Shown here: piece after piece, positions 21,474 through 62,954 of the stretch
How the letters are laid out: each line of letters starts with the position of its first letter
Position numbering within the stretch: position 1 is the first letter of the stretch
DNA from: an uncultured bacterium
GTDB lineage: Bacteria > Bacteroidota > Ignavibacteria > Kapaibacteriales > UBA2268
Reading direction: 5' to 3'
Assembly: GCA_942492935.1 (NCBI GenBank)
Contig: OW818654.1
Location: 1,515,219-1,579,218 of the forward strand
Length of the DNA stretch: 64,000 nt
Position numbers and translations under genes: made by a program
Notes under the pieces: model-generated
Databases searched by the model: none
The model's input: the letters and a program-made list of their open reading frames with translations, nothing else
What the model was told of the DNA's origin: nothing

Positions 21474-21557
21474 TTTAATAGTCTGTTGATAAAATAAAAA
21501 TTTAATCTTCTATCAAGTGGTTAAAGCACCTGAAAGATGATTAAATTTATACTTTAT
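21474..21557. other. Candidate attL of the integrated element (imperfect copy of the 62159-62254 sequence; 21-bp identical core at 21537-21557)
   Basis: tttaaTagtctgttg … gtggTtaaagcac … ATGATTAAATTTATACTTTAT is matched in the same order at 62159-62254. Confidence 0.55.
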
Positions 21558-22234: not shown

Positions 22235-23344
22235 TCAATTTACATATTTCCCGAGTTCATCACTATCTGTATAAGCATAATATTTCATTACTGTATCTAA
22301 ACTATCTCTTGATAATTTGCTAACTATTTGAGGAGTTAATTTTTCTGTATATAACCATTCTGATATTCTTGTTTTTCGCAAAGTATGAATACAACGACCA
22401 TAGACTGCTTTTCGTTTTCTTTCTATGCCTGATATATTCATTTGTTTTGTGTTCCCATCTCCTACGGTATATTTTGGAATATTTAATGCTTCCAATCCCT
22501 TATTAAACCTATAGTCAATCGTTCTTGAATAATCTGATATGTTGAATATTTTACCTTTGCTTTCTTTCCTACTTTCTACTTGGTCAAATATATTTTTCAA
22601 TTTATCTGTCAATGGAAATTTGTCGGGCTTGTTACCAAATTTTGATTTTTCAAACATTATACTTTGTCTGTAATCACCATCTGTATTTAAGACTTGGTCC
22701 CATTCCATATTAACCGCTTCATTTTTACGCAATGCACAAATATAGATAGTTTGTATTAATAGATAAAATTGATAATTCTTTTCTTGCCAATAATCAAATA
22801 TTTTTTTTATTTCCTCTGGAGTATATATTTCAATTATTTTTTCTGTTTTTTTAGGTTTTAATGTTTTAATAATTGGATTTTTCCGCATCCATTCTCTTTC
22901 GATACAGTAATTGAAAAAACTTGATAACCTAATTAAATTAACCGTTGCCGTTTTTGAAGCGTGATTTCGTTTCAATAAATTATTTTCTATATGCAGAGTA
23001 ATTTTATTATCGTCATTCAAAATTAAATCTTCTGTAATATATGATTTGAATGAATAAATGTATTGCTGAAGTGTGTTTTTATGCTTAGTATTTTTCGATT
23101 GCTCAATGAAGATTTTGAACGCTTGAATGATTGTTACAGGATGATTTTCATTTCTGAAATGTTCTGGGCTTTCACTTTCTGCAATTATATCACCTGCGAT
23201 TTTACGATTTTTACGATTATAAATCAAACCGCAGGATTTCATTCTATTGCCTACTTTGTACCATATAATGCTCTTTTTACCACGAACAAAAAACCGTCCT
23301 TTACAGCCGGGCATTGAGTACGGTTTTTCTGGTGCTTTTTCCAT
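22235..23344 (-). CDS. int: Tyrosine site-specific recombinase (phage integrase family)
   Basis: The C-terminal catalytic region contains …GRCIHTLRKTRISEW (the H-x-x-R box) and …LDTVMKYYAYTDSDE, which carries the catalytic Tyr. An N-terminal SAM-like domain is present. 369 aa. Confidence 0.85.
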   Translation of the reverse strand: MEKAPEKPYSMPGCKGRFFVRGKKSIIWYKVGNRMKSCGLIYNRKNRKIAGDIIAESESPEHFRNENHPVTIIQAFKIFIEQSKNTKHKNTLQQYIYSFKSYITEDLILNDDNKITLHIENNLLKRNHASKTATVNLIRLSSFFNYCIEREWMRKNPIIKTLKPKKTEKIIEIYTPEEIKKIFDYWQEKNYQFYLLIQTIYICALRKNEAVNMEWDQVLNTDGDYRQSIMFEKSKFGNKPDKFPLTDKLKNIFDQVESRKESKGKIFNISDYSRTIDYRFNKGLEALNIPKYTVGDGNTKQMNISGIERKRKAVYGRCIHTLRKTRISEWLYTEKLTPQIVSKLSRDSLDTVMKYYAYTDSDELGKYVN

Positions 23345-32202: not shown

Positions 32203-32246
32203 TATAAAATATCAAAAAAATTTTAAAAATTCAACAGAGAGGATTT

Positions 32247-36587: not shown

Positions 36588-36588
36588 T

Positions 36589-37754: not shown

Positions 37755-37797
37755 ATCATCGCCCGGCTCGTGCCGGGCTATATAAGGAGCAGAAAAA

Positions 37798-38031
37798 ATG
37801 GAATATTTAATTAATGAAGATGACCATGTTTTAATAGAATTTGATAATTCTATCACAGTAGATATGGATTTAAGAATAGATTATAAAGATTCAAACGAAG
37901 GAGTTGGATTTTGGAATATCGAAATTTTAACTCCAGATTTTAAAATTCTTTTAGAAGATGACACAAAAGAAAATGCACTCACAAAATCATTAAATATGGT
38001 TAAAAGTTTAAATTATTATTATAGTCTTTAA
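37798..38031 (+). CDS. Hypothetical small acidic protein
   Basis: Starts at the ATG of cassette 1. Confidence 0.4.
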   Translation: MEYLINEDDHVLIEFDNSITVDMDLRIDYKDSNEGVGFWNIEILTPDFKILLEDDTKENALTKSLNMVKSLNYYYSL

Positions 38032-40437: not shown

Positions 40438-41061
40438 TTAATTATTAAAGATTGGAAATTCCATATCTTTTTTGATTTTTTTGTAAAGATAACGATTTTT
40501 GGTATGACAATCTGCAATACCATCTTCTGCGTGAATAACAACTTCAGCTAAATGCAGAACGTCATTTTCACCTTTAAAACTTTTTCCACCTTTCAATGAG
40601 AACAAAACACTTATAAAACTAATAGCTTGCTCTTTATAATCATTGTGAAGCATAAACAGATCCATTACAGTTTTTTGGTTAAACATAGCAATTTTTGAAA
40701 TACTGTCCATAATTACAAACTTATATTTGCCTGTATCAATCTGCTGTTTGATTGAATTTAATTCGCAATTATCCCAAAAATGAATTGTAGGACTGCTGAT
40801 TTTCAAAGCCCTTGCTTTACTTTGAATTGTACCACCTGCGAGGTTTTCCTCCGCATTTATGTACAAAACCCTGCCACTCCTTGAAAGCATATCAGCAAGT
40901 TTTAAAGCAAATGATGATTTACCTCCAAATGATGGACCAGTTAATAACATTGTCCATTGAACATTTGAAGGAATTTGACCTAAGAATTTGTTCCATTTTA
41001 ACGGCATATTCAGAGGTTTTACTTTGTAACCAATTGTATGAGATAATGGTGTTGCTTTCAT
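40438..41061 (-). CDS. RecA/KaiC/DnaB-C-terminal-like P-loop ATPase (207 aa)
   Basis: Walker A LLTGPSFGGKSSFALKL. Walker B …YKFVIMDSISKI (hhhhDS type, RecA-like rather than FtsK/HerA DE type). Confidence 0.55.
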   Translation of the reverse strand: MKATPLSHTIGYKVKPLNMPLKWNKFLGQIPSNVQWTMLLTGPSFGGKSSFALKLADMLSRSGRVLYINAEENLAGGTIQSKARALKISSPTIHFWDNCELNSIKQQIDTGKYKFVIMDSISKIAMFNQKTVMDLFMLHNDYKEQAISFISVLFSLKGGKSFKGENDVLHLAEVVIHAEDGIADCHTKNRYLYKKIKKDMEFPIFNN

Positions 41062-43563: not shown

Positions 43564-46500
43564 TTAAGCACCAATTGACCACTTATTAACTGGTGCGGCT
43601 TCATTGTAAACGATATTGCAAGCATTAAGCAATGCAACTAATTCCACACAATTATAGCAACAACCACTCGCACCACTCGCACCATCTAAACCATTTTGTC
43701 CGCTGTAACCAGAAATTCCATCTGCACCATTTTGACCACTGTAACCTGATGCACCATTAATTCCACTAAACCAGCCACTATAACCTGAAATTCCACTCGC
43801 ACCATCTTGACCATTTTGACCGCTGTAACCTGAAAGACCATCTAAGCCATTTAGACCGCTGTAACCCGAAATTCCATTGCTTCCATTTTGACCACTGTAA
43901 CCTGAAATTCCGTTTGTACCATTTTGACCACTGTAACCTGAAATTCCACTTTGAGCTTGACCATTTGCACCCGAATAACCACTTAGTCCATCTGTACCAT
44001 TTTGACCACTTATTCCTGATTCGCCTTTTGCACCACTCGCACCTGACGCACCCGAAAAACCACTTTTTCCTGATGCTCCACTCCAGCCCGAATAACCACT
44101 GTAGCCACTAAGTCCTGATTTGTCCACCCACAATTTTAATGAAATATCGCCTGTGAATCCTGATATTCTTGTGTAGTCTTCAGTAGCTCCACTATATCCC
44201 GAAATTTGCCATTGTCCGTAAACTGTGAGAGGTTCTGCAACTGTACCCGAGAAGTCTTTGAAGTTTGCAGTTTGCCAATTCTTTTTACTGTCAATAATTG
44301 TATTGTTATGTCTCAATGTATTTGTTTGCATTGTATTTGGAATAATCGGATGCGAGAAATATGGTGTAATTAATGGATCTGTTGAATTACCAACTTTAAA
44401 TCCAGTAACTCCACCTGTTTGCTCAACTTTTACAACTAATCTGTGTCCGCTTTCCCAACTGAAACAACTTAAATCTGCTAAAAATGTATATATGCCACTA
44501 ACCGGTAATGTATCGGTAGAAATTTGACCTTTGTATGTTTCAGTACCATCTGCTTCTAAAGCATAGAATTTAAATGTTAAATATGCACTTCCTGATGAAG
44601 TAACATTCAAATTGAAAAACCATTTACCAAATGGGAAAATATCACCTGCTGGCTCAAAAGCATTTGCTAAGAATTTCAAATTTGTGAATGATGTGAAATT
44701 CACTTCTGCGTGAGATGGTTTACAACGTGAAATTACACGGAAACCTGCTTTGTCTGATGCGTCATTTGTGAAGAAAAATGTTTCATTTCCTGCACCGCCA
44801 TCACTACTTGCTCCACTATAACCACTATATCCCGATGCTCCCGCTGTACCTGTATCGCCTTTTGGTCCAGTTGCTCCACTTGTTCCAACTCCACTGTAAC
44901 CCGAAATCCCGTCTTGTCCTGAATAACCGCTGAATCCACTTCTTCCCGAAAATCCTGATGTTCCTTGTGTGCCTTGCTGTCCCGAATAACCACTAAATCC
45001 CGATGTTGATTGTCCCGAATAGCCACTAAATCCAGAAGTTCCAATTCCTGATTTACCACTCCAGCCCGAGAAACCACTTTTCCCTGACCAGCCCGAAAAT
45101 CCAGAAGTTCCAATTCCTGAATAACCTGATATACCACTTTCGCCTTGAATACCATTTTGACCACTGAAGCCCGAAGTTCCAATACCTGAATAACCACTAA
45201 AGCCCGATGTACCTACTCCAGAGAAACCGCTATAACCACTATATCCTGATGTTGAAGTTCCTGAATAACCACTAAAGCCCGATTCGCCCGGAATACCAAT
45301 ACCTGAACCATCTTGACCGCTGAAGCCCGAAAGCCCACTTTCGCCTTGAATACCTTGCTCACCTTTTTCGCCACTGTAACCACTAAAGCCCGATATTCCC
45401 GGTACGCCAATACCTGAACCATCAAGTCCACTATATCCACTATAGCCCGATGTTCCAATACCACTGTAACCCGAGAAACCGCTTATTCCTTGCGTTCCAA
45501 TTCCCGAAAATCCGCTGAACCCACTTGTTCCAATTCCCGAGAAACCACTTAGTCCTGATGTTCCAATTCCCGAATAGCCACTAAATCCTGATGTGCCTAC
45601 TCCCGAAAATCCACTTAGACCTTGCTCACCTTTTTGACCGCTGAAACCTGAAAAACCACTTATTCCCTGCGTTCCAATTCCCGAAAATCCACTAAGACCT
45701 GTATCGCCTTTTTGTCCACTGTACCCAGAAAAGCCCGAACTTCCAGCTCCACTAAACCCGCTATAGCCACTTGTTCCAATTCCTGAATAACCACTGAACC
45801 CACTTCTTCCCGAAAATCCTGATGTTCCAATTCCTGAATAGCCACTTTTGCCACTCCATCCACTGAAGCCCGAAGTTCCAATTCCCGAAAAACCACTTAT
45901 ACCTTGATCGCCTTTTTGTCCGCTGTAACCACTAAACCCGCTTGTTCCTATTCCCGAATAACCACTTTTGCCACTCCATCCACTGAAGCCCGAAGTTCCA
46001 ATTCCTGAATAACCACTAAAGCCCGATTCTCCCGGAATACCAATACCTGATCCATCTTGTCCTGAATAACCACTTTTGCCACTCCAACCACTGAAGCCCG
46101 AAGTTCCAATTCCGCTGTAACCCGAAAATCCACTTAATCCATCTTGACCACTGTAGCCCGATGTAGAAAGTCCTGAATAACCCGAGAAACCACTTGTTCC
46201 CGGAATACCAATACCTGAACCATCTTGTCCTGAATAACCACTTACGCCACTCCAACCACTGAAGCCCGAAGTTCCAATTCCAGAATAGCCACTGAATCCG
46301 CTTGTTCCAATTCCCGAATAACCACTGAACCCACTTGTTCCAATTCCCGAATAGCCACTGAATCCACTTGTTCCAATTCCTGAATAACCCGAAAATCCGC
46401 TTGTTCCTTCTGCACCATCTTGACCGCTGAAGCCCGAAATTCCACTTTCGCCATCTGTTCCATCTTGACCTGAATAACCTGATATTCCACTTTCGCCATC

Positions 46501-47475
46501 TATTCCATCTTGACCGCTGAAACCACTATAACCCGATGTAGAATTTCCCGAATAGCCACTAAATCCCGATGTTCCCGGAATACCAATTCCCGAACCATCT
46601 GCACCTGAATATCCCGAAAATCCACTTTCGCCTTGAATACCTTGATCGCCTTTCTCGCCACTGAAGCCCGAATAACCACTCAAACCTAAGCCCGAATAGC
46701 CACTGAAGCCCGAAGTTCCAACTCCACTGTAACCCGAAATTCCTCTCGAACCAACTGCACCCGAAAAACCGCTATATCCACTTGCACCATCTGAACCCGA
46801 ATAACCAACTCCCGAAAATCCACTTAGACCTTGCTCGCCTTTTTGTCCGCTGTAGCCACTAAATCCTGATGTTGCAATTCCCGAATAACCACTGAATCCA
46901 CTTGTTCCCGGAATACCAATACCTGAACCATCTGCACCCGAAAAGCCCGAATAACCACTGAAGCCACTTGGTCCATTTGCACCAATAATTCCATCTTGTC
47001 CCGAATAACCGCTGTAACCCGAAACTGAAATTCCCGAATAACCACTATACCCTGATGTAGAAACTCCACTGTAGCCCGAAAATCCACTTGTTCCCGGAAT
47101 ACCAATACCCGAACCATCTGCACCCGAATAACCGCTGTATCCACTTTCGCCAGAATAACCAACTCCCGAATAACCACTGTAGCCCGAAGTTGATAATCCA
47201 GAATATCCGCTGAAGCCACTTTCACCCGAAAATCCAAGTCCGCTGAAACCCGAAAAGCCCGATGTTCCCGGAATACCTACACCTGAACCATCAAGTCCAC
47301 TATATCCTGACATCCCAGAAAATCCTGAAAAACCACTGAACCCCGATCCTCCAGAATAGCCACTGAAACCGCTTTCTCCGTCATAACCACGTGGACCAAT
47401 TGGACCAACTGAACCACCGCCACCACCGCCGAAGCCGTTACCTTCTGTCCCAATTGGGATTGTTGAGCAACTCAT
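43564..47475 (-). CDS. Giant collagen-like repeat protein (1303 aa), candidate fibre/spike
   Basis: Hundreds of SG(F/Y/W)SG and G-X-Y units (…GFSGYSGIGTSGFSGYSGQKGEQG…, …GPKGDTGTAGASG…). A ~230-aa non-repetitive central domain lies around 44.1-44.8 kb. The C-terminal tail CCYNCVELVALLNACN is Cys-rich. Confidence 0.75.
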   Translation of the reverse strand: MSCSTIPIGTEGNGFGGGGGGSVGPIGPRGYDGESGFSGYSGGSGFSGFSGFSGMSGYSGLDGSGVGIPGTSGFSGFSGLGFSGESGFSGYSGLSTSGYSGYSGVGYSGESGYSGYSGADGSGIGIPGTSGFSGYSGVSTSGYSGYSGISVSGYSGYSGQDGIIGANGPSGFSGYSGFSGADGSGIGIPGTSGFSGYSGIATSGFSGYSGQKGEQGLSGFSGVGYSGSDGASGYSGFSGAVGSRGISGYSGVGTSGFSGYSGLGLSGYSGFSGEKGDQGIQGESGFSGYSGADGSGIGIPGTSGFSGYSGNSTSGYSGFSGQDGIDGESGISGYSGQDGTDGESGISGFSGQDGAEGTSGFSGYSGIGTSGFSGYSGIGTSGFSGYSGIGTSGFSGYSGIGTSGFSGWSGVSGYSGQDGSGIGIPGTSGFSGYSGLSTSGYSGQDGLSGFSGYSGIGTSGFSGWSGKSGYSGQDGSGIGIPGESGFSGYSGIGTSGFSGWSGKSGYSGIGTSGFSGYSGQKGDQGISGFSGIGTSGFSGWSGKSGYSGIGTSGFSGRSGFSGYSGIGTSGYSGFSGAGSSGFSGYSGQKGDTGLSGFSGIGTQGISGFSGFSGQKGEQGLSGFSGVGTSGFSGYSGIGTSGLSGFSGIGTSGFSGFSGIGTQGISGFSGYSGIGTSGYSGYSGLDGSGIGVPGISGFSGYSGEKGEQGIQGESGLSGFSGQDGSGIGIPGESGFSGYSGTSTSGYSGYSGFSGVGTSGFSGYSGIGTSGFSGQNGIQGESGISGYSGIGTSGFSGWSGKSGFSGWSGKSGIGTSGFSGYSGQSTSGFSGYSGQQGTQGTSGFSGRSGFSGYSGQDGISGYSGVGTSGATGPKGDTGTAGASGYSGYSGASSDGGAGNETFFFTNDASDKAGFRVISRCKPSHAEVNFTSFTNLKFLANAFEPAGDIFPFGKWFFNLNVTSSGSAYLTFKFYALEADGTETYKGQISTDTLPVSGIYTFLADLSCFSWESGHRLVVKVEQTGGVTGFKVGNSTDPLITPYFSHPIIPNTMQTNTLRHNNTIIDSKKNWQTANFKDFSGTVAEPLTVYGQWQISGYSGATEDYTRISGFTGDISLKLWVDKSGLSGYSGYSGWSGASGKSGFSGASGASGAKGESGISGQNGTDGLSGYSGANGQAQSGISGYSGQNGTNGISGYSGQNGSNGISGYSGLNGLDGLSGYSGQNGQDGASGISGYSGWFSGINGASGYSGQNGADGISGYSGQNGLDGASGASGCCYNCVELVALLNACNIVYNEAAPVNKWSIGA

Positions 47476-48150: not shown

Positions 48151-49523
48151 ATATTTAATGAAAATCTTACTGAATTTGCACTATCGTGCTTCACTTCAAT
48201 CTTTAATGATTCGTTTGTATCGTCAGCTGTAACTTGACAATCCCAATTTGTAGTTCCACTATCAGCACCAACTACGGTTTTTGTTACAGAACCGACTAAT
48301 GATGTGTTATTACTTGCATCTCTTTTAATAGCACCAATTAACTCCCAAGTTTTCACACTAAAATCAGTTGCGTCAATAGCATTTAATTGTATTCTGAATT
48401 GATAAACTGAACTTGCAATTATTGTTAATCTTGCACTTGTAGCATCAACGAATAATTCTTGCCAAGCTGCCGAATTAGTAGTTAAATCTTTACTTGCATA
48501 TTTTTGCACAGCCAAATAAGACTTCCCATTAGCAATATAATCACCATTAATAGCCAATTCATTCGCTCTTTCGTTTACAGAATACGCTCCAAAAGCTATA
48601 GCACCTGGTCCAACTCCATTATAATTTGCTGATTTGCCTATAGCTACATCTCCACTGTTTGTGCCAGTATTTGCACCTATAGACACACCTTCGTTATATC
48701 CGTACGCACTTTTTCCAATAGCTACTCCATAGTTAAAAGATTTTGCACTGCCCCCAATCAACACTGACTCTTTATTTGCAAATACCCAATCTGTCCCATC
48801 ATAATAATATGTGCGTATTGCACCAGACCCCAAAGTATCAACTGCATTTCCTACACTTTTATAAACATACAATGCACTATTGGAATCAGCGTTATTATTC
48901 ATCACCGTAATTTTGTACCCTGCGGTGATACCTGTCGTTGGCAAATAAACATACTTGTCTGAGGTATTGTTCGGATTTAATATCTGTATTGTCGGACTAC
49001 TCGAAGTTAGTGTCTTATCAGCAGACAATGTTTCAATATTTACAGATTCACCGCCATTATTGCCACTATATCCACTGATTCCTGATGTTCCTATTCCACT
49101 ATATCCACTAAATCCCGATGTTCCTATTCCACTATAACCACTGAAGCCCGAAGTTCCTACTCCAGAATAACCTGAAATACCACTATCGCCTTGAATACCT
49201 TGTTCGCCATTTTGACCACTATATCCACTAACATTTGCACCACTATATCCACTAAATCCTGATATGCCCGGAATACCAATACCTGAACCATCTGCACCAG
49301 AATAACCTGATGTTCCACTTTCGCCTTGAATACCTTGTTCGCCTTTTTGACCACTGTAACCACTAAAGCCAGATGTTCCTACTCCCGAATAACCACTTAT
49401 TCCACTTACCCCGAAGCCCGAAAATCCAGAAAAACCAGATCCGCCACTAAATCCACTGAATCCACTCCAGCCCGAAAAACCCGATGTATCAGCCATTTGT
49501 CCTCCTAAATCCAACAAGCCCAC
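48126..49523 (-). CDS. Collagen-like repeat protein 2 (465 aa), paralogous N-terminal GYSG-repeat shaft plus a C-terminal globular domain
   Basis: The N-terminal ~190 aa carry the same SGFSGYSG/GxxGxQG repeats as the 1303-aa protein. The ~270-aa C-terminal domain is non-repetitive. Confidence 0.7.
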   Translation of the reverse strand: MGLLDLGGQMADTSGFSGWSGFSGFSGGSGFSGFSGFGVSGISGYSGVGTSGFSGYSGQKGEQGIQGESGTSGYSGADGSGIGIPGISGFSGYSGANVSGYSGQNGEQGIQGDSGISGYSGVGTSGFSGYSGIGTSGFSGYSGIGTSGISGYSGNNGGESVNIETLSADKTLTSSSPTIQILNPNNTSDKYVYLPTTGITAGYKITVMNNNADSNSALYVYKSVGNAVDTLGSGAIRTYYYDGTDWVFANKESVLIGGSAKSFNYGVAIGKSAYGYNEGVSIGANTGTNSGDVAIGKSANYNGVGPGAIAFGAYSVNERANELAINGDYIANGKSYLAVQKYASKDLTTNSAAWQELFVDATSARLTIIASSVYQFRIQLNAIDATDFSVKTWELIGAIKRDASNNTSLVGSVTKTVVGADSGTTNWDCQVTADDTNESLKIEVKHDSANSVRFSLNIWATETRL

Positions 49524-50082
49524 GAATCCGCAAGCTCAATAATGGATGATAAATATTTCTCTGTCTTACAAATACTCCGTTGCCGTTGCTTTGTGAACCA
49601 GCTTTTCCGTTTGATGTATTAAATGCAATTGTTTGAACCCATCCAGCTTTTCCAACTTTGATAACTCTTTCGATATGTCCATTGTAGCTTTTTGGATTAA
49701 TCCAAGTAATTAAATCGTGAATATTTGCTATGTAATTTGTTCTGTAATTGAATTTCTTCGCATAATTAAACGCAGAATTTGCCATTCCAGATTTTGGAAT
49801 AGGAATAGAATTTCTGTTTAATTTTAATTGATTTATAGCTTGTAAAAATGCCCAATATTGACCTGCATAACAGTACGGATTACCTTTTTTTAATCCTACT
49901 GAATGTAAGTATTTTTCAACTTCACCATCATTTTTATTCGTTTTTTCTGTAATTCCAATTTGAGAAATAGCAAAATCCTCTGAAATTTCAAGAATTTCAA
50001 AGTTACTAATTGGAATTTCATAACGAATTTGTGAAAATAAGTTGGCAGTAAGCAATAATATGAAAAATAATGACTTTTTCAT
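49489..50082 (-). CDS. Secreted CHAP-like cell-wall hydrolase candidate
   Basis: Signal peptide MKKSLFFILLLTANLFSQ. Cys context …KKGNPYCYAGQYWAF…. His context …NGHIERVIKVGKAGWVQTIAFNT…. Confidence 0.4.
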   Translation of the reverse strand: MKKSLFFILLLTANLFSQIRYEIPISNFEILEISEDFAISQIGITEKTNKNDGEVEKYLHSVGLKKGNPYCYAGQYWAFLQAINQLKLNRNSIPIPKSGMANSAFNYAKKFNYRTNYIANIHDLITWINPKSYNGHIERVIKVGKAGWVQTIAFNTSNGKAGSQSNGNGVFVRQRNIYHPLLSLRIRGLVGFRRTNG

Positions 50083-50728: not shown

Positions 50729-51510
50729 TAGAAAACCTCATTCTGATTTGTAGAATATTGCGGAGGAGCTTGTGGAATTTGTTGCGTTTGTGGTTGTGGT
50801 GCTGGTTGCCCCACATTCCAATCACGCATTTTCTTTTCTGCAAATGCTCCAAGTATTTGACCACCTAATGACAATATTCCTGCAACTGCGGGATGTGCTA
50901 AACCACTCGAAAGAGCATCAGCAAGAGCTTCACCGTCCTGTTGCTTGTCAATTACTGACTGAAATCTTGCTTTGAAATCTTCAAATTCTTTATTTCTAAG
51001 TTCCAATTCCTTGAGTATAGCTTCTTTTTCACTTTGTAATTTTATAATTTGTCTATCAGAATCCAAAATATGATCCCGAAGTTCAGTTTCTGTTTTTTCA
51101 AGATTGTAAATTCTTTTTTCTTTAATTGATAATTGTTCTTTTATTGTCTTATTATGTTCAATATTAGCTTTGTTGTCGCTGTAATTGTATGCGGAAGGTA
51201 CGAAAGAACTACCATTATCAGCTAAGCCCTCTGGCTTAGGATTGAACGGCATCGGCATACCTTCACCAATATATTTCCTGTCCCCATTTTCAATTTGGGA
51301 AACAGTAATTTTGTCCCTTGCAGAATATTTGCAGGGATTTTTTTCCAAGAACTCCTCGAAATCCGAAACATTAAATCTATCCAATAATTGTTGTCCGCTG
51401 TAGCTATAATTCATAGGATTATTGGTATATTCCACATTATGATTATTGGTACAGTTTAATTTTCTTTTACCAAATGAATAGGTTTTTTCTGGATTAAATG
51501 TAAGTGGCAT
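50728..51510 (-). CDS. Coiled-coil protein with a Q/P-rich C-terminus
   Basis: …KEQLSIKEKRIYNLEKTETELRDHILDSDRQIIKLQSEKEAILKELELRNKEFEDFKARFQSV… is a coiled coil. The tail PAPQPQTQQIPQAPPQ is Q/P-rich. Confidence 0.45.
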   Translation of the reverse strand: MPLTFNPEKTYSFGKRKLNCTNNHNVEYTNNPMNYSYSGQQLLDRFNVSDFEEFLEKNPCKYSARDKITVSQIENGDRKYIGEGMPMPFNPKPEGLADNGSSFVPSAYNYSDNKANIEHNKTIKEQLSIKEKRIYNLEKTETELRDHILDSDRQIIKLQSEKEAILKELELRNKEFEDFKARFQSVIDKQQDGEALADALSSGLAHPAVAGILSLGGQILGAFAEKKMRDWNVGQPAPQPQTQQIPQAPPQYSTNQNEVF

Positions 51511-52196
51511 TAGTAAAACTCCTTATAAGTCGCTGTAGAACTATCAAAATTTAATTTTGATGATGTTTTTTCATTGGATGCAAGATTACCACCGGGAACA
51601 AAACCAAGTGAAGCAAATACTTTGTCTTTATATTTTGCACCTTCTTTTTTGTTACCACCGGGAAAACTGCCTTGATTATAAGCTGTAACTGCTTTAGTCA
51701 TATCGTTTTTGTAACGTTTAGTCTGATAAGCAAGTTCGTAAACTGACAACATAATTGCATAATCGGGATCGTTCAAAATACGGTCCTGATTTTCTGCAAC
51801 TGTTGATGTTGGATAGACTTTTGAACAACTAAACATAGCTGGAGCAAATTCTACCTTGAGTCTTTTCTTTTCATTTTCACGTTGAGTACAAATTAGCATC
51901 TGCATAATTCCACGTGCTGTGCTTTTTTTATTACGAGCCGTAGTATTATAGCTTGATTCTACATTTGCAATAGCTACAACGTGAGAAGCAATTGTTTCTG
52001 GTTTAATTCCATACGTGCCTGCAATGTTTTTTGCGTGCTTTAATGCAATGGAATATACTGTATTTTTATCCATTTTTGGCATTGACTGTACCTGTTCCTG
52101 TCCAAAAAGTAACGACACAAATAATTGGGTATCTCTGAAGATGATTATAAGCATCACGTAAATCAATTCTTTGCCATACTGCTCCGTGTGCTTCAA
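51510..52196 (-). CDS. Lytic transglycosylase (SLT domain); the start is probably internal, near 52073-52082
   Basis: …IANVESSYNTTARNKKSTARGIMQ… carries the catalytic E-S and the A-x-G-x-MQ motif. …TAYNQG is also present. The protein ends in …TYKEFY. Confidence 0.7.
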   Translation of the reverse strand: MKHTEQYGKELIYVMLIIIFRDTQLFVSLLFGQEQVQSMPKMDKNTVYSIALKHAKNIAGTYGIKPETIASHVVAIANVESSYNTTARNKKSTARGIMQMLICTQRENEKKRLKVEFAPAMFSCSKVYPTSTVAENQDRILNDPDYAIMLSVYELAYQTKRYKNDMTKAVTAYNQGSFPGGNKKEGAKYKDKVFASLGFVPGGNLASNEKTSSKLNFDSSTATYKEFY

Positions 52197-52866
52197 CAGT
52201 ATTCACTTTGCCAAGTTCTCTGTCCAAATTAACACAAAATGGTAATGGTAAACCAATTGACATATCGCCTTCATTGCCTTTATTCCCATAATTTGAACTT
52301 GTCATTCCTTTTAGAATAAATTGGTCATTGATAATTATTTGCGGTCTAAATCCGTTAGGTTGCCAATTTACAGATAATAAACCGTTTTTATAAACAGACT
52401 GTGCATAAGTTTTTGAGTACAATGGCGGTGGAGTTTGCTCTTCACCGGGTCCGATTTGTTGCGGAAAACTTTCATCTGCTGATGTAGGAATCCTACTTGC
52501 TTTAATTACATTCCAAAGGTCTTCATTTTGATATGTAGAACCTTCATACATTGAATCATAAGCGTAAAATTCTGCTTTTTCAATATACACTTTCTGTGCT
52601 TTGAAAATTTCACTCAAGTCTGTTAGAGGTCGTAAATAAGTTGAATAAGGATTATTACCTGCGTGATTATTTTTTCTTGTGGGAATTGAATCACTGTCCT
52701 GTCCGCATTTATTAAACTCGTTAATATAACCTAATGGATTACTTGTAATAAAATAATCTTTGTCATCATCAGTAACAACAATATTATTTTCTGTACTTGA
52801 CGCAAATATAGCAACTACCGTCTCTGGATAGAACCTTCTTATTTCACTATTTAATCCACAATCCAT
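52066..52866 (-). CDS. Hypothetical structural-module protein
   Basis: 266-aa ORF. Confidence 0.4.
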   Translation of the reverse strand: MDCGLNSEIRRFYPETVVAIFASSTENNIVVTDDDKDYFITSNPLGYINEFNKCGQDSDSIPTRKNNHAGNNPYSTYLRPLTDLSEIFKAQKVYIEKAEFYAYDSMYEGSTYQNEDLWNVIKASRIPTSADESFPQQIGPGEEQTPPPLYSKTYAQSVYKNGLLSVNWQPNGFRPQIIINDQFILKGMTSSNYGNKGNEGDMSIGLPLPFCVNLDRELGKVNTVEAHGAVWQRIDLRDAYNHLQRYPIICVVTFWTGTGTVNAKNG

Positions 52867-52867
52867 A

Positions 52868-53329
52868 TTATTGTATTCCTAATAATCTATATCCAATGAA
52901 TGAAATATAAACATTGTAAGGTGCAGTACCTACGGCTGATGTTGGTTTTCCATCGCCTGTAACTTCTACATTAATTTTAGTTCTTGCTGGGAATATCCAA
53001 CCTTTAAATCTAATTGAATGAACAAGATTTTTTAAATTTTCTAAATTAATTGGTTTATTAAAATAGCTTTCACCATCTTCATTTTTCAATTGCATTAGGA
53101 AATTTTGTGCTTGTTCTCTGTCTTGCAATTTATAACCACTTGCATCAGTAATATGAATTTGCAAATCTTCTACCCAAAAATCATCACTACCAATTAATAA
53201 ATCTTCACTTTGATTATCAGTAACAGTTGCTAAATCCAATCGCATATTATAAGCAAATGGGTCGTTATAATTCACTCTTGAAGCTAATTCGTTAGCTTGA
53301 ATTACTCGCCTTGCTGTTCTATTTGACAT
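52868..53329 (-). CDS. Hypothetical structural-module protein
   Basis: 153-aa ORF. A terminator lies between it and the upstream gene. Confidence 0.4.
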   Translation of the reverse strand: MSNRTARRVIQANELASRVNYNDPFAYNMRLDLATVTDNQSEDLLIGSDDFWVEDLQIHITDASGYKLQDREQAQNFLMQLKNEDGESYFNKPINLENLKNLVHSIRFKGWIFPARTKINVEVTGDGKPTSAVGTAPYNVYISFIGYRLLGIQ

Positions 53330-53356: not shown

Positions 53357-53405
53357 AAAAAAGTAGTGAGAGCTGGGAGTATCCTATAATCGTCAGCTCT
53401 CACTT
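53357..53405 (-). terminator. Strong rho-independent terminator on the minus strand, immediately after 53437-54072
   Basis: AGTGAGAGCTG…CAGCTCTCACT has an 11-bp stem and is followed on the minus strand by a T6 run. Confidence 0.7.
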
Positions 53406-53436
53406 GCCACACCGGAGGAGTTCCGGTAAATTTTCC

Positions 53437-54072
53437 TTAGCCGTTTACTTTAGATTTAACGCCTTTAAATTCTACCATAATATAATTGCCTTGATCAGCT
53501 GTTGAAAGAGCTGAACCTGCTTTTTTAATATATGGTGAAAGAGTAGCACTATAAGCGGCTGTAGATACTTCTTTAGCTGGAACGATTTTAACATCTGGTC
53601 TGCCACCTGCTGGCACGATAACGGGCTTAGCAAGTTTGAAAATATTGTTAAATTTATCTCTAATTCCGTAGAAAGAAGCTGTACCATTTTGATTGTCTGC
53701 CTGACGAATTTCAAAATTCACCAATTCATACAATGGAATCTTAACAACATCATCACCTTCATTTGAAATATGAAGTACAGAGTTGTTTAAGAAATATTTC
53801 AATTTAGCATTGTTCAACAATGGATCAGTATTACTAAATAAAATACCAAAATCAATGCGTAAATGAGTTAATGCAAATGCTTGAGTGTTTGATGGGAAAA
53901 CCTTACTTTTCCACATTTCATCTTTTGCATCGTTACCAAAGAAATCCATATCAACTAATGCTGTAGATGGATTAATAAACACTGTATCTCTTATCCATAC
54001 TTCATCGTTCTGGAATTGAGCGCCGTTTGAGCTACCAACGGCTTGCAAAGTTTGTTTTGCTTGAAATGACAT
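53437..54072 (-). CDS. Candidate major structural (capsid-like) protein, 211 aa
   Basis: Predicted beta-rich protein. A dedicated strong terminator follows it, which is typical of abundantly expressed structural genes. It is adjacent to a second protein of similar size. Confidence 0.35.
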   Translation of the reverse strand: MSFQAKQTLQAVGSSNGAQFQNDEVWIRDTVFINPSTALVDMDFFGNDAKDEMWKSKVFPSNTQAFALTHLRIDFGILFSNTDPLLNNAKLKYFLNNSVLHISNEGDDVVKIPLYELVNFEIRQADNQNGTASFYGIRDKFNNIFKLAKPVIVPAGGRPDVKIVPAKEVSTAAYSATLSPYIKKAGSALSTADQGNYIMVEFKGVKSKVNG

Positions 54073-54126
54073 TTTTTTGTCCTTATGAATAATTTTAAAA
54101 TAAATAAATAAATTTCTTTGTCGTGC

Positions 54127-54789
54127 TTACAGAGTTATATTTCCATAAGCTACACCATTAGCAAATTCTTCCCAATCGTCATTCAAGGATGCGGCATTGA
54201 ATCCTGCGAGATTGAAAGGATTATTTGAGTAATCAGCGAGTGGATTTGGACCATAACGAACATTCGCACTTGCAACATTAGCTGGTTCAAGCTGTAAAGG
54301 CATTGAATCATTTACAGTTTCACCACTTGGACCCGATGACACTAATATTTTAGTTCCATCTGGTCGAGTAACATATTCCATACCCGCAGGTGCAGGCATA
54401 TCATCTTGTACACCTACCGCAGGCAATGAAGCACTCACTTGAATAGAGTTCTTTGTTGCTGGTGGAATAGGTGAATTAAAAATCTTTGCTATGTATGGAT
54501 TTCCATAAACATATAACAATTTAGTACCTTTTGTAATCAAAGTACCAAGAGCAATGTAAGGTTTATCGAAGCCCAAGCCAATAGCTGTTACAATTGAACC
54601 CGAAGCAAAGTTTCCTAATGCTCCTGACATATCAATTCTGTAATTTCCATCTTCTTTACGTCCTCCCAAGCCCTGAATCATTGCGGGCAATACTTCACCT
54701 GCAACTGCACCAAGAGCCGTATAACCTGCTTTAGACCAAAATTCCTTTTGCCCTAAATAGCGACCAATCAGTTTAAAGTCAAATTTCAT
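54127..54789 (-). CDS. Candidate structural protein, 220 aa, Gly-rich N-terminal region
   Basis: Located immediately upstream of the 211-aa candidate. Confidence 0.35.
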   Translation of the reverse strand: MKFDFKLIGRYLGQKEFWSKAGYTALGAVAGEVLPAMIQGLGGRKEDGNYRIDMSGALGNFASGSIVTAIGLGFDKPYIALGTLITKGTKLLYVYGNPYIAKIFNSPIPPATKNSIQVSASLPAVGVQDDMPAPAGMEYVTRPDGTKILVSSGPSGETVNDSMPLQLEPANVASANVRYGPNPLADYSNNPFNLAGFNAASLNDDWEEFANGVAYGNITL

Positions 54790-54800
54790 TCTTCTTATCC

Positions 54801-55253
54801 TTATAATAGTTTTTTAACTGCATAGTGAGACGCAAAGCCTGTTCCTGTACCAACAAGCAAAGATGTTATCCACCCTGTTTTAAATCCATATTTAGCAATA
54901 GCTGTTGCACCTGCACCGAGAGCAACTGAAGTAATCATTTTCATATCATCGGGCATAGAAAGGGATGAAAACTTTGCCACTTGTGGTGCTGGTTCACCTG
55001 TAACCGGCGGGTAGTCCGGTGTTGGTAAATTATTAACCGGTACTGCTTCCTGCGGTCCATATACTTGCGGTGCATTATTCGGATTGGCTGGAGATTTTAT
55101 TCCAATTTGATCCTGAACCCATTTATCACCTTCATTTATGATACCACCAGCGATGTTGTTCCCGGCTTTTTCTATTCCACTCCAAATGTTATCGAAGAAA
55201 TTTTCCTCATCTTGCAAGGAAAATACTTCTGGAGTATTAGAAAATCTGTTCAT
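54801..55253 (-). CDS. Membrane protein (C-terminal TM helices), proline-rich centre
   Basis: …MITSVALGAGATAIAKYGF…WITSLLVGTGTGFASHYAV is hydrophobic. Confidence 0.4.
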   Translation of the reverse strand: MNRFSNTPEVFSLQDEENFFDNIWSGIEKAGNNIAGGIINEGDKWVQDQIGIKSPANPNNAPQVYGPQEAVPVNNLPTPDYPPVTGEPAPQVAKFSSLSMPDDMKMITSVALGAGATAIAKYGFKTGWITSLLVGTGTGFASHYAVKKLL

Positions 55254-55269
55254 TTTTAAACCTCATAAA

Positions 55270-58200
55270 TTAACAATCATTACAATCACAATCATCTGAA
55301 TTGCAGTCGCAATCACAATTTTTTCTTTTTCTATTTTCAGTAACCGGTGCATATTCAAATACAGTTTTTTTGTATTCTTCAACCATTGCCGGAATTTTCT
55401 TTTTATCACAATCAGTACATTCACCACTAATATTACTTTGTGGCATATATGGATCTACACTTGGTATATTTGGAGTAACTTGTGGAGCATAAGGAGTAAC
55501 ATCTGGTACATAAGGAGTTCCTTGTGGTACGTAAGGTGGTATAACATCTGCTGGTACGTAAGGAGTAACTTGCGGAACATAAGGTTCTACAGTAGGTACA
55601 TAAGGAGTAACTTGCGGAACATAAGGCTCTACATTTGGTACATACGGAGTTACTTGCGGAACATAAGGTTCTACAGTTGGTACATACGGAGTTACTTGCG
55701 GAACATAAGGTTCTACAGTAGGTACATAAGGAGTAACTTGCGGAACGTAAGGTTCTACAGTTGGTACATAAGGAGTAAAACCACTTTGAGCTACAAAACC
55801 GCTATTACTTTCTTTAATTATAATTACACAATTTGCAGTATCTACCTCGTAAGCTGTACCATTAATCACCACAAAATACTTGCTTGTACCTCCAACTTGT
55901 CTATATGCTTTAATTCGTGTAGTTGGCTGTTCATCATTCAATGTTACTTTGAATGGTGGCAATGTTGGCATTGCTCTGTTTTGTGTATCTGTCGGACTTG
56001 GCATTAACACATCTTGCGGAGGAGTGATGAACAAATTAGTATTTGGATTTGCTGGAGATTTAATTTCCGGCATAACTCTATTTGTATTGTCCGCAGGAAT
56101 AATATTAACAGTTGGAAATACGCTTGTAACGGGATTATTTACTGGACTTTGCATAATTTCATTGCCTACTGATTGAGTAAACAATGGATTAGTTGGAATA
56201 ATCGGCATTGTTGTTAAAGTTGCTTTCGCTGACTTTGGAACAAACCAATATTGACCATCAATAATTTCAATACAAGGAGGTAAATTATAATCTACACTAC
56301 CTGAATAGCCACTAAATCCACTTTGTACCAAATAACCGCTGTTACTTTTTACATCAAAATTATTAACATCCTTACTTGAATATCCTGATACATTTGTATT
56401 AGTGTTTGTATTAGTATTTGTATTTGTATTAGTATTTGTATTAGTATTTGTATTGGTGTTTGTATTAGTATTTGTATTGGTATTTGTATTGGTATTTGTA
56501 TTAACATCTTTATCAATACGAATATCTTTATTTACAGTAACCGTTGTATTTTCACTAACACAAGACCGTTTCATTGCATCATAAGTATATCCCGGAGGAC
56601 AGTAAATGATTTTCTTCTTAACTTCTTTTTCTAATTCAATTTTAAAACATTCTGCTTCTTCTGGACAGATATTTGGAGGAAGAATAAATATATCAGTTGA
56701 AGTACCTAAAGCATTTGCTTGACTTTTTAATGAATCATATAAAAATGGTTTAAATATTGAATTATTTGGAATATGCCCGAATACACTTTGAATTAATCCT
56801 GCGTGAATTTCTGCGTTACTACTGCCATCTTTCCATCCTAAATTTGTATCGTAAGCATTTTTATTCCCAAGTATAGCAATTGCAAATTTATCTATACTCG
56901 GCATCATTGGTAATATAGTTTGATTTGAGCCAGCAATAAATAAATCTCTTACAATTGGAATATCAGTAATAAATTGTTGGTCTGCAATTGCACTTACAAG
57001 AGTTTGAGAATCTAAACTTCTACCTATTTTATTAATCATTTGCATAGTTTTAGTATTTTCAACTAATTTCTGCACATATTTAAAACTTTTAGAATCAGTA
57101 TATTGTGATAAATCAATATTAATGGCATTACCAATATTGCTATAAGCATTTCTTATAGCTAATCCTAATTCTTCATTTATACCTAATTTCTCAAATTCTA
57201 CTACTGAACCTTTCCATATTTTATCTAATGCCACTTGTGCATCTTGAAGTATTGGACCAAATGTTGTTTTCAATGATTTACCAACACCATCAGCCCAAGT
57301 CATAATCCCACCTTTAATATTTTCTGGAATTATATAATCTGCTGTTTGAGCAAGTGTTGTAATTGCACTAAAGGCGTTTATTTCACCACCATTAGCATAA
57401 TTTTGTAAGTTTTGAGATATTCCTTTTAAAATAGCAGGGTCAAACGCATTAGCTAACCCGGGTATTCCGGGTAATATACTTGCTACAGTTGAAATAACAG
57501 TTGCTAACTCCCTTTTCCACTTGTCGCCATCTTGCTTGTTAATAACCCAAACGAAATTAAATGGTATTTTCTTTTTAAACTGATAGCCCATTGTAAATAG
57601 TTCTACTTGTTTAATCATACCCGGCAAATTTCCTCTTTGGCTCATAATCATATCTTTTAATGCTTGAGCTTTTCCTTTCTCCCAACCAATTGATACTGCT
57701 TTCATATATGGATTTCTTGTATTTCTATCATCCATAGACAATGCAAATGAACCTGAAGAGCTAAATGCTTCGTAACCACCAATACGGTCAGCCATTCTTT
57801 CTGCCCAACCGTTACCAGTACTGCTATCCCAATTTAATTCTACTAAACAAAAATCTGGACCAATTAAACCACTTTCTACTAAATATTTAGTTTGTGCATT
57901 TGGCTGTGATAATATGAAATGTAAATTTCCATAATTATCTTTAAATATTCCAAATCCCGTATGTGTTTCTGATGGTCTTTGGCTATTGAAAACAGCACCA
58001 CGAGGATCACCACCTGCATAACTATTGCTTGCTTTTGTTATATCAGCTAATACTCTTTTATTTTTTAATTGTGAATAATGCAATAAATTACCAGTAGATG
58101 GTACTTTAATTGTATATTCTTTACAATTCGGAATAGGCGGACAAGGTATTGGCTCTTTCGCTGGTGGAGGTGGAGGAGGAGTTTCAACTACATCAGTTGT

Positions 58201-59004
58201 GCCACTATAACCACTATAAACATTTATTCCACTATAGCCACTACTGCCCGATTTGCCAACATTAATTTCATCTTTTACAATTTCACTTTCAGTAATTTTT
58301 GCTTGAAAACAATCACGACCTTTGTAAGGTTTGTATGTTCCTGAACAATTTTGCTTTTCAATATGTGAAAATAATATGCCTGTTGTTCTTTGATAGCAAT
58401 GTGAGATTGGATATTCATAAACTGCAATACCATCTTGAGTAGTATCGCCATCACCAGACAAGCCCGTAGTACCAACTTTTACATTACCTTCAACTGTAAT
58501 AAATCTTGCATCATCAACATAAATCACTATTCCCATATGTCCCGAATTGTTTGAACTTGTAGAATAACGATAAAATATTGACCCAACAGCTGGGTAGTAA
58601 TCTGTTTGATAAACTGATTGTAATTTTTTAATGGTATCGAATGCGTTACCTGATAAGTTTCTTGGGAATTTATCAATTGATTGGCAACCTATTAATTTTG
58701 TTGCTTCTCTAATTACATAAGCTGGAAAATAAACACACCACGCTTCGCCTTTAGCTTTTTCACTTGGGGTTAAGCCCTTATAATCTCTAATAAATGTTTC
58801 TACACAACTATTTGGCTCTGTAAAATTTCCATTTCCGTCATATTTTTCATAACATTGTGCTTCCGCCCACCAACGAGCTACGCAAACTATTTGATTACCA
58901 ATTTCTGACTGTGTTTTCTTGGTAAAAAAATACTTGCTCAATAGTGTATTATCTACAAGAGCAATGCTTTTAGCTAAATTACTTGGGTAAGCTGAATAAG
59001 CCAT
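55270..59004 (-). CDS. Giant multidomain protein (1244 aa) with N-terminal CHAP peptidase domain, poly-Pro linker, large central domain, (TN)~20 and 14-aa PYVPxVxPYVPQVT repeats, and a Cys-rich tail
   Basis: CHAP Cys context …GEAWCVYFPAYVIREATK…. CHAP His context …NSGHMGIVIYVDDARFITVEGNVKV…. PPPPPPAKEPIPCPPIP. NTNTNT… x20. Five to six PYVP repeats. C-terminal CDCDCNSDDCDCNDC. Confidence 0.7.
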   Translation of the reverse strand: MAYSAYPSNLAKSIALVDNTLLSKYFFTKKTQSEIGNQIVCVARWWAEAQCYEKYDGNGNFTEPNSCVETFIRDYKGLTPSEKAKGEAWCVYFPAYVIREATKLIGCQSIDKFPRNLSGNAFDTIKKLQSVYQTDYYPAVGSIFYRYSTSSNNSGHMGIVIYVDDARFITVEGNVKVGTTGLSGDGDTTQDGIAVYEYPISHCYQRTTGILFSHIEKQNCSGTYKPYKGRDCFQAKITESEIVKDEINVGKSGSSGYSGINVYSGYSGTTDVVETPPPPPPAKEPIPCPPIPNCKEYTIKVPSTGNLLHYSQLKNKRVLADITKASNSYAGGDPRGAVFNSQRPSETHTGFGIFKDNYGNLHFILSQPNAQTKYLVESGLIGPDFCLVELNWDSSTGNGWAERMADRIGGYEAFSSSGSFALSMDDRNTRNPYMKAVSIGWEKGKAQALKDMIMSQRGNLPGMIKQVELFTMGYQFKKKIPFNFVWVINKQDGDKWKRELATVISTVASILPGIPGLANAFDPAILKGISQNLQNYANGGEINAFSAITTLAQTADYIIPENIKGGIMTWADGVGKSLKTTFGPILQDAQVALDKIWKGSVVEFEKLGINEELGLAIRNAYSNIGNAINIDLSQYTDSKSFKYVQKLVENTKTMQMINKIGRSLDSQTLVSAIADQQFITDIPIVRDLFIAGSNQTILPMMPSIDKFAIAILGNKNAYDTNLGWKDGSSNAEIHAGLIQSVFGHIPNNSIFKPFLYDSLKSQANALGTSTDIFILPPNICPEEAECFKIELEKEVKKKIIYCPPGYTYDAMKRSCVSENTTVTVNKDIRIDKDVNTNTNTNTNTNTNTNTNTNTNTNTNTNTNTNTNTNTNVSGYSSKDVNNFDVKSNSGYLVQSGFSGYSGSVDYNLPPCIEIIDGQYWFVPKSAKATLTTMPIIPTNPLFTQSVGNEIMQSPVNNPVTSVFPTVNIIPADNTNRVMPEIKSPANPNTNLFITPPQDVLMPSPTDTQNRAMPTLPPFKVTLNDEQPTTRIKAYRQVGGTSKYFVVINGTAYEVDTANCVIIIKESNSGFVAQSGFTPYVPTVEPYVPQVTPYVPTVEPYVPQVTPYVPTVEPYVPQVTPYVPNVEPYVPQVTPYVPTVEPYVPQVTPYVPADVIPPYVPQGTPYVPDVTPYAPQVTPNIPSVDPYMPQSNISGECTDCDKKKIPAMVEEYKKTVFEYAPVTENRKRKNCDCDCNSDDCDCNDC
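55440..55800. repeat. 42-bp tandem repeat, about 6-8 units (encodes the PYVPxVEPYVPQVT repeats)
   Basis: ggttctacagt(a/t)ggtacata(a/c)ggagt(a/t)acttgcggaac(a/g)taa units. Confidence 0.8.
56395..56520. repeat. Hexanucleotide (TN-dipeptide) tandem repeat, about 20 units
   Basis: (gtattagtatttgtattggtatttg…), period 6. It encodes (NT)n in the 1244-aa protein. Confidence 0.85.
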
Positions 59005-59815: not shown

Positions 59816-60319
59816 TTATTTATACCTTTTTTCTCTAATTACTTTTAATTCCTGACCACCAAAACCCTGTGCTTTTCTCGTTGCATCAAGTACAATCCAT
59901 TTTCCACTTTCAAATTCTGCTTCACATACAACGTGAGTGTAACTGTGTTTTCGCCACGCAATAGTTTTGATTAAACAATTAATTCCATTAGCTTTCAGAA
60001 GTGAGCAAATCAATGTAACCATCTCATCGCAATCCATATATTGAGTTTGTACACCCGATAATATATGAACAGGTGCGGTTAAATGTTCAATTCCTTGAGG
60101 ATCAGCTTTATATGGAAAATTTTGCCAAACATAATCATAAACCGATTTAATAGTGTCGAATTTATTACCTTTTTTCAAACTTTGTGCTAATTGCTTCACA
60201 ATCGGAGCAGAATAATCTCTATTAATCAATTTCCATATTTTCGCAACAATTTTATCAGTAATTTCATCTTGTGAACCTGTTAAAATATCCGTTGTTTTCT
60301 GTGGTGATGTTTGAGACAT
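59816..60319 (-). CDS. Transglutaminase-like cysteine peptidase domain protein
   Basis: …YMDCDEMVTLICSLLKANGINCLIKTIAWRKHSYTHVVCEAEFESGKWIVLDAT gives a Cys…His…Asp spacing and context typical of the transglutaminase-like core. Confidence 0.55.
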   Translation of the reverse strand: MSQTSPQKTTDILTGSQDEITDKIVAKIWKLINRDYSAPIVKQLAQSLKKGNKFDTIKSVYDYVWQNFPYKADPQGIEHLTAPVHILSGVQTQYMDCDEMVTLICSLLKANGINCLIKTIAWRKHSYTHVVCEAEFESGKWIVLDATRKAQGFGGQELKVIREKRYK

Positions 60320-62254: not shown

Positions 62255-62954
62255 CGTGAATTATGATTAAATTTATACTTTATAAACAGACTGTTTACGA
62301 GCAAATGCTTAATAAATTAAATCTTCATAGTAGTTTCATTTTAAGTTTTATACTTAAAAAGTATAGTTGCACTCTAATTTGTTGATAAATTGCAATACAT
62401 AATTTATATTATAAAAAATTACATAATATTTGAATTGATTATGTTAAAATTTTAAATAACATCTTTATATATTAATCAAAAATATTTTTTGAGGTGAAAT
62501 ATTTTTCTTGGATATTTCATTGAAAATTGAAATTGTTGATTGTAAGCAAGTTTCAAAAATAACAATTTCCAAAATGCTGATTGAATGGGCATTTTGAGGT
62601 ATGAATGAAGAGATATTTTTACTAATAGTGATAACTTATTGAATTTAAAACAAGTAATCAATTGTTAAAAAAAAGTTAAAAAATGATTAACTTATAAGTC
62701 TTTGTATAACTAATACTTAAAATATCCAAAAGAAAAAAGTTCAAAAAAAAAATTAAATTTGTTGTATTATTTGAAAAAAAATTGGAAATTTAAATAAGGA
62801 AAAAAATGAAATTTTAAAAAAGTTATTTGATTGATTTCATTTTTTACAATGATGAGAGAGATGATTATTGCCCAAATTTATTTTGGGTAATAGAATTTTC
62901 GGGGAAAATATTTTAATAAAGGAAGAGAAAGTGAATTATACTAACAGTATTACA

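Follow-up and report, generated by a model that had tools for sequence, protein, structure and literature searches.

A candidate single jelly-roll capsid gene followed by a terminator-like hairpin in a putative tailless prophage of a Kapaibacteriales bacterium

The question raised by the present locus is which protein would build the shell of a phage-like element in which no HK97-type capsid gene can be recognised. The element lies in a 64,000-nt stretch of DNA from an uncultured bacterium of the Kapaibacteriales (Bacteroidota; assembly GCA_942492935.1, contig OW818654.1, positions 1,515,219 to 1,579,218 of the forward strand), which is referred to as the window and from whose first letter all positions are counted. 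A first-pass annotation of the sequence had pointed to two neighbouring genes for proteins of 211 and 220 amino acids (aa), followed by a strong terminator, as a candidate small jelly-roll capsid pair. The analysis reported here retained the virion module of non-HK97 type, a small jelly-roll capsid protein and the strong terminator-like structure at its gene, while the pairing of the 220-aa with the 211-aa protein found no support. We consider it reasonably likely that the element is a tailless prophage with a 211-aa single jelly-roll capsid protein, whose expression would be controlled by a hairpin followed by six T residues (T6), and with a 207-aa packaging ATPase, the 220-aa protein not being a partner of the capsid protein.

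The two open reading frames (ORFs) are both real, as annotated earlier, and lie on the minus strand with a spacer of 54 nt. They belong to a late block (40.4-61.4 kb, minus strand) whose genes are all intact and tightly packed. Of the late-block proteins scanned, none had a Pfam or PHROG match to an HK97 capsid, portal or terminase, which agrees with the earlier statement that the module has no HK97-type capsid gene. Outside these scans lay four late-block ORFs (121, 108, 111 and 101 aa) and the greater part of the early region, none of them being long enough for a portal or large terminase. The features on which the argument depends are the following.

54127..54789, minus strand (read from 54789 to 54127): conserved Gly/Ala-rich 220-aa protein with a low-complexity tail, upstream member of the pair, directly upstream of the proposed capsid gene
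53437..54072, minus strand (read from 54072 to 53437): 211-aa single jelly-roll protein, proposed major capsid protein, downstream member of the pair
53428..53410, minus strand: first hairpin after the 211-aa gene, 7-bp stem
53404..53365, minus strand: second hairpin after the 211-aa gene, 11-bp stem, then ACTTTTTT
52868..53329, minus strand: 153-aa second jelly-roll protein, proposed penton (vertex) or second capsid protein, across the predicted terminator from the 211-aa gene
40438..41061, minus strand: 207-aa P-loop ATPase, the only ATPase in the late block

The 211-aa protein gave no match in Pfam, PHROG or NCBIfam, and three close relatives were found among 5.8 billion proteins. A profile search of 1.84 billion cluster representatives recovered 65 clusters with lengths of 184-264 aa, all but two of which fell between 196 and 228 aa. 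The AlphaFold2 model, built from a 58-sequence alignment, was confident (pLDDT 90.8, pTM 0.83) and placed an N-terminal helix before a beta sandwich with one inserted helix. The sandwich is predicted to have eight strands in jelly-roll topology. The first-pass annotation had called the protein beta-rich and had suggested looking for a jelly roll with AlphaFold; the model bore out both the beta-rich character and the fold, returning a confident single jelly roll with matches among capsid proteins. [quoted passage not shown] Taken together, the model and its matches suggest that the 211-aa protein is the major capsid protein.

A Foldseek search of the same model against the predicted viral structures of BFVD returned a clear top match, I1ZBH9 (211 aa, E 5.7e-6, TM 0.51), with I1ZBI0 (256 aa) lower in the list. 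The SSIP-1 record (JN880423; 43,788 bp, circular) lists gp46 (211 aa) directly before gp47 (256 aa), both as structural proteins, and from their lengths and consecutive accessions the two BFVD entries would correspond to these proteins. No atomic structure of an SSIP-1 capsid was present among the solved-structure matches. Profile searches against PDB sequences with the 211-, 220- and 266-aa families gave nothing meaningful, and the 211- and 266-aa proteins had no match at E <= 1 when compared by tblastn with 50,697 phage records. No relative of the 211-aa family was found in the INPHARED phage collection, or by pattern scans with the capsid alignment in IMG/VR and the GTDB representative genomes; the same scan of JGI metagenomes returned one 2.2-kb fragment.

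The gap of 107 nt located 3' of the 211-aa gene contains both hairpins. The T6 run after the second hairpin occupies 53362..53357, and the hairpin-plus-T6 lies 33 nt past the stop codon of the 211-aa gene. The gap folds at -29.1 kcal/mol (z = -3.6), and none of 200 shuffled sequences folded as well. With a GC-containing stem-loop and a U-run downstream of a stop codon (53404..53357), the second hairpin and its T6 are predicted to act as an intrinsic terminator or attenuator. Its loop of 18 nt is longer than usual for intrinsic terminators, and because it exceeds 8 nt, a simple consensus terminator scan of the minus strand did not list the structure. Further terminator-like hairpins in the late block flank a 1303-aa gene, at ~47.78 kb and ~43.5 kb; the hairpin at the proposed capsid gene is therefore strong, not unique there. 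It had previously been described as the strongest, dedicated terminator of the block; the hairpin is real and "strongest" is defensible, whereas "dedicated" is an interpretation.

Eleven metagenome loci with related capsid genes (L001-L012, with the SSIP-1 record left out) were compared with the window. In nine, which cover the capsid gene together with its flanks, the order is the same, namely transglutaminase, giant protein, ~150 aa, ~215 aa, jelly roll of ~210 aa, ~150 aa, ~245 aa, SLT, ~270 aa, ~100 aa and CHAP; L004 and L007, the remaining two, are short fragments with a consistent order. In one of the related loci, genes for an integrase and a CI-like repressor are present as well. The 211-aa family is represented by a single gene in the window and in every related locus, and the ~215-aa gene upstream of that gene belongs to an unrelated Gly-rich family. 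A strong hairpin (-16.5 to -31.9 kcal/mol) was found directly 3' of the jelly-roll gene in seven of the nine loci that span this gap, where it was the strongest gap structure in five and the second or third in two; in L009 and L011 it was weak. Between the 220-like and jelly-roll genes, the gap was usually unstructured. The hairpin sequences at this position are mutually unrelated across the loci, and the maintenance of the position without sequence conservation argues for a function.

How such a hairpin might serve a capsid gene can be outlined from the gene order. High-level transcription would cover the 211-aa gene together with its two upstream neighbours (150 and 220 aa). The hairpin-plus-T6 may be a partial terminator or a stabiliser of 3' mRNA ends, which would stop most transcripts or shield their ends, and read-through would yield lower amounts of the 153-aa jelly roll, the 266-aa protein, the lytic transglycosylase and the remaining genes. 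The 207-aa ATPase would package the genome. The 153-aa protein, which has no Pfam or PHROG match, was modelled from a 5-sequence alignment as a jelly roll with capsid-type matches. Two neighbouring jelly-roll genes are thereby predicted (211 and 153 aa), and the role of the second would be that of a second major capsid protein or, most likely, a vertex (penton) protein. A steep drop in expression between the two would fit the stoichiometry of hexamers and pentons; with T = 49, as in SSIP-1, 2,880 copies in homohexamers would stand against 60 copies in pentons. Control of this stoichiometry by a terminator is offered as a proposal rather than an observation.

The design would find its best structural analogue in SPV1, in which VP4 forms hexamers and VP10 forms pentamers (PMC8459092), with the vertical single jelly-roll dsDNA viruses as the wider class. 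By analogy, the steep drop would match the SPV1 scheme and would agree less with that of the Helvetiavirae / Singelaviria (Sphaerolipoviridae, Simuloviridae and Matsushitaviridae, e.g. P23-77, HHIV-2 and HCIV-1). These viruses have genomes of 16-31 kb, an ATPase gene adjoining both capsid genes, and two capsid proteins made in comparable amounts and assembled into heterohexameric capsomers, whereas here the predicted terminator parts the two jelly-roll genes and the sole late-block ATPase, in place of an FtsK/HerA (A32-like) ATPase beside the capsid genes, is encoded ~12 kb away. No sequence similarity connects them with this element. The double jelly-roll phages (Tectiviridae PRD1, Corticoviridae PM2, Finnlakeviridae FLiP and Autolykiviridae) differ further, with two fused jelly rolls in proteins of 269-395 aa and genomes of 9-15 kb, compared with the single jelly rolls and ~41 kb found here.

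The closest known system is SSIP-1, for which we relied on reviews and on the GenBank record (L013). It is a tailless icosahedral phage with an internal membrane and a T = 49 capsid according to these reviews, and it has two capsid protein types (PMC6356626); gp40 is its predicted packaging ATPase (PMC4124505). The 207-aa ATPase aligned with gp40 over 173 aa including Walker A and B (BLASTP 1e-10), and the 167-aa transglutaminase-like protein matched the structural protein gp34 (BLASTP 6e-13). Within SSIP-1 (34635-35959 of its record), gp45 (210 aa) and gp46 (211 aa) are structural paralogues with 26% identity (E 1e-12), and they are presumably the two capsid protein types, a statement that was not found in the accessible papers. 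The 211-aa family aligned collinearly and at nearly full length (150 columns) with a gp45+gp46 profile, with a pairwise E of 0.006 and an hhalign probability of 6%. The other genes of the window that enter this comparison are listed below.

59816..60319, minus strand: 167-aa transglutaminase-like protein (Pfam Transglut_core 6.9e-9)
55270..59004, minus strand: giant virion protein of 1244 aa, with tandem repeats and a CHAP domain at its N-terminus
54801..55253, minus strand: 150-aa protein with a Gly-rich hydrophobic C-terminus, candidate virion membrane protein
52066..52866, minus strand: 266-aa conserved protein, fold unknown
51510..52196, minus strand: SLT lytic transglycosylase (Pfam SLT 1.6e-12), kept in related loci

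The structural modules of the two are collinear. In SSIP-1, gp34 (transglutaminase-like) is followed by several genes, gp40 (ATPase), gp41, ORF42, the 2319-aa giant gp43, gp44 (241 aa, Gly/Ala-rich), gp45, gp46, gp47 and gp48 (132 aa). In the window, the transglutaminase-like 167-aa protein is followed by several genes, the giant of 1244 aa, the 150-, 220- (Gly/Ala-rich), 211-, 153- and 266-aa proteins, SLT, further genes and the ATPase. The giant thus holds the same position in both, gp43 being structural, and the 220-aa protein resembles gp44 in composition and position only. Both genomes are dsDNA of similar size (40.7 kb against 43.8 kb), both hosts are classed as Bacteroidetes, and no gene for a terminase, a portal or an HK97 capsid is recognised in either. 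The differences are equally visible: SSIP-1 has two paralogues of ~210 aa where the present element has one together with an unrelated 153-aa jelly roll, and its ATPase gene lies upstream of the giant gene, whereas here it lies at the far downstream end. SSIP-1 is reportedly lytic. The element described here carries an integrase, its GC content is near 30%, and its protein composition is not of the halophile type; none of the genes in the SSIP-1 record is annotated as an integrase.

Among the alternatives, the one that survives best keeps an SSIP-1-like virus and assigns the 211-aa protein a minor role as a spike, receptor-binding lectin or cement protein, with another product such as the 266-aa protein forming the shell. 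The top matches of the 211-aa model are shell proteins, and the family keeps a nearly constant length over 65 divergent clusters. A strong hairpin follows the gene directly in most relatives, and the gene stands at the position of gp45 and gp46, which form the only paralogous structural pair found in SSIP-1. With these observations against it, we regard a minor role as unlikely.

The pairing proposed in the first-pass annotation, in which the 220- and 211-aa proteins would be the two single jelly-roll major capsid proteins of a sphaerolipovirus-like virus, has its appeal. The two genes lie next to each other, have similar sizes and are apparently transcribed together upstream of the terminator, and SSIP-1 has such an adjacent paralogous pair in gp45 and gp46. 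The likeness that had been noted between the two proteins holds for their length and for nothing else, as BLASTP between them gave E = 13 and hhalign of the profiles a probability of 0.6%; no paralogy with the 211-aa family was detected by hhalign for the 153-, 220- or 266-aa families either. The 220-aa protein gave no match in Pfam, PHROG or NCBIfam and contains 30% Gly+Ala+Pro. Residues 20-90 of its family hold two to three Gly-rich segments that are conserved and moderately hydrophobic (Kyte-Doolittle maxima of 1.2-1.8 in a 19-residue window), followed by a short conserved motif, PAGM..TxPDG..LV. The C-terminal half is of low complexity (37% Asn/Ser/Pro/Asp, with PLxDY tandem repeats) and varies in length, with large indels among homologues. 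This composition, the hydrophobic segments and the variable half appear to leave no room for a conserved eight-stranded sandwich, and a different protein, that of 153 aa, models as a jelly roll. The 153-aa prediction and the lack of such features in the 220-aa protein would therefore shift the adjacent jelly-roll pair by one gene, to the 211- and 153-aa proteins. A jelly-roll partnership of the 220-aa protein is thus better called unsupported than refuted, and we hold the proposal of a 220/211 pair to be very improbable.

What the 220-aa protein does instead can be suggested from the same features. Its family is kept directly upstream of the capsid gene in every related locus that covers the position, and it is probably a virion protein associated with the membrane or lying beneath the capsomers. 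The earlier description of both proteins as non-membrane is accordingly doubtful for this one, given its conserved hydrophobic Gly-rich segments and its content of Gly, Ala and Pro. Several other late-block proteins have Gly-rich hydrophobic segments or transmembrane helices, as expected for a membrane-containing virion, and an internal membrane in the virion would be consistent with them.

A third alternative takes the element for a decayed prophage or a non-viral integrative element, in which the jelly rolls would be carbohydrate-binding or secreted proteins. The element is known from its genes alone, no relatives were found in IMG/VR, and three CHAP domains, one SLT domain and collagen-like proteins occur in non-viral elements too. 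The ends of the element are as follows.

21537..21557, plus strand: left 21-bp exact direct repeat, probable att, ATGATTAAATTTATACTTTAT
62263..62283, plus strand: right 21-bp exact direct repeat, probable att, ATGATTAAATTTATACTTTAT
22235..23344, minus strand: tyrosine-integrase-like gene at the left end, weak Pfam support

The repeat occurs twice in the window, where no copy is expected by chance, and extends imperfectly to ~35 bp. As the two copies enclose the integrase and all phage-like genes, they are probably attL and attR and would delimit a prophage of ~40.7 kb. The Pfam scores of the integrase-like gene lie just below the cut-offs (Phage_integrase 25.6 bits against 27.1; SAM-like domain 21.9 against 22.3). 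The integrase and att repeats are intact, as are the tightly packed genes of the roughly 20-kb late block on one strand, and the module has been kept despite amino-acid divergence in many independent metagenome contigs. Two of its proteins are homologous to virion proteins of the cultured phage SSIP-1. Decay or a non-viral origin consequently seems to us highly unlikely. A tailed prophage with an undetected HK97 capsid was rejected, since every ORF of suitable size is accounted for and the late-block proteins scanned yielded neither a terminase nor a portal. A Microviridae-like provirus was likewise rejected, because the element consists of 41 kb of dsDNA and carries an integrase, and because insertions of the microvirus type are absent from the jelly roll.

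The proposal of a tailless prophage with a 211-aa capsid protein has to be weighed against several observations that speak the other way. Beyond the knowledge of the element from genes only, the equation of I1ZBH9 with gp46 derives from length and accession order, and the ATPase and transglutaminase matches concern widespread domains. Searches of the 211-, 153-, 220- and 266-aa families against every SSIP-1 protein with hmmsearch and hhalign returned nothing significant. The view that the 220-aa protein is not a jelly roll was reached from its sequence features only. The ATPase gene lies ~12 kb from the capsid gene, whereas the two are adjacent in sphaerolipoviruses. With no match in IMG/VR or the GTDB representatives, all relatives are therefore uncharacterised metagenome contigs. 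Finally, collagen-like proteins that resemble tail fibres are present, and tailless phages carry spikes too.

A broader interpretation is that the prophage and the 65 clusters stand for a widespread but unrecognised lineage of temperate dsDNA phages that have no tail, contain a membrane and belong to mesophilic Bacteroidota, with SPV1-style homohexamers and a separate jelly-roll penton. We put this forward tentatively and regard it as rather doubtful at present. No published description of SSIP-1-like proviruses or of the 211-aa family was found in a search that did not extend to subscription journals. If the lineage were real, it would be a bacterial counterpart of the ancestral state proposed to precede the capsid-gene duplication in SSIP-1 and the Helvetiavirae; SSIP-1, which has stood alone since 2012, would no longer be an orphan, and the single jelly-roll dsDNA viruses of bacteria would be connected with those of archaea. 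The lineage would further add a bacterial data point on the shared origin of dsDNA viruses with one, two or fused jelly rolls, which is an open question (PMC8812541). Integrated relatives in ordinary low-GC Bacteroidota would open this type of virus to experiment, since the prophage could be induced in a sequenced strain. Nothing of the group came up in Pfam, PHROGs and NCBIfam (211- and 220-aa proteins) or in IMG/VR, INPHARED and the GTDB representatives (211-aa family only), and the capsid profile (alignment A2) can serve as a new marker for non-tailed prophages.

Further details were recorded for the genes surrounding the proposed capsid gene. The 266-aa protein has a mean column identity of 49% over 8 loci, the highest of the four aligned module families, and gave no match in Pfam, PHROG, PDB or the phage database. 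The 150-aa protein has no PHROG match and a single Pfam match, weak and below threshold; in the related loci its position is taken by a gene of comparable length (136-169 aa), with sequence similarity to that of L003 only (E 4e-5). In the 1244-aa protein, a (Thr-Asn)n run arises from a 6-bp tandem repeat (56392-56502), ~8 copies of a 42-bp repeat (55447-55778) encode PYVPQVTPYVPTVE units, and the C-terminus is Cys/Asp-rich; the giants at the same position in relatives range from 1147 aa (5'-truncated in L012) to 1620 aa. The 167-aa transglutaminase-like protein is also kept in L008, L009 and L011. As called mechanically, the SLT ORF has a TTG start at 52196 and shares 131 nt (52066-52196) with the 3' end of the 266-aa gene, and its homologues are 177-197 aa long; its true start is therefore probably an internal ATG.

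The 207-aa ATPase resembles the RadA/Sms, AAA_24/25 and Sak4-like families in sequence. An exact-sequence look-up returned no record for it, and 10 of the 50,697 phage records matched, among which SSIP-1 was the best cultured match by coverage. Two long genes of the late block remain to be listed.

43564-47475, minus strand: collagen-triple-helix protein of 1303 aa
48126-49523, minus strand: collagen-triple-helix protein of 465 aa

Both lie within a stretch of 43% GC, against ~30% for the remaining element, and their products are candidates for vertex spikes or fibres. The late block is also unusually rich in cell-wall-active domains, with three CHAP domains, one SLT domain and one transglutaminase-like cysteine protease fold (41058-41669, 49489-50082, 51510-52196, 55270-59004 and 59816-60319, all on the minus strand).

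In the early region, genes for a methyltransferase, a GT2 glycosyltransferase and a DnaJ-domain protein were observed (31579-33392 on the plus strand and 36589-37140 on the minus strand), and the GC content falls to 21% at 36001-38000. The host flank (96-20791) encodes large proteins, five of the seven scanned having C-terminal T9SS (type IX secretion) sorting domains, which places the host in the Bacteroidota, together with a 908-aa fusion that resembles a succinyl-CoA ligase alpha subunit joined to a citryl-CoA lyase.

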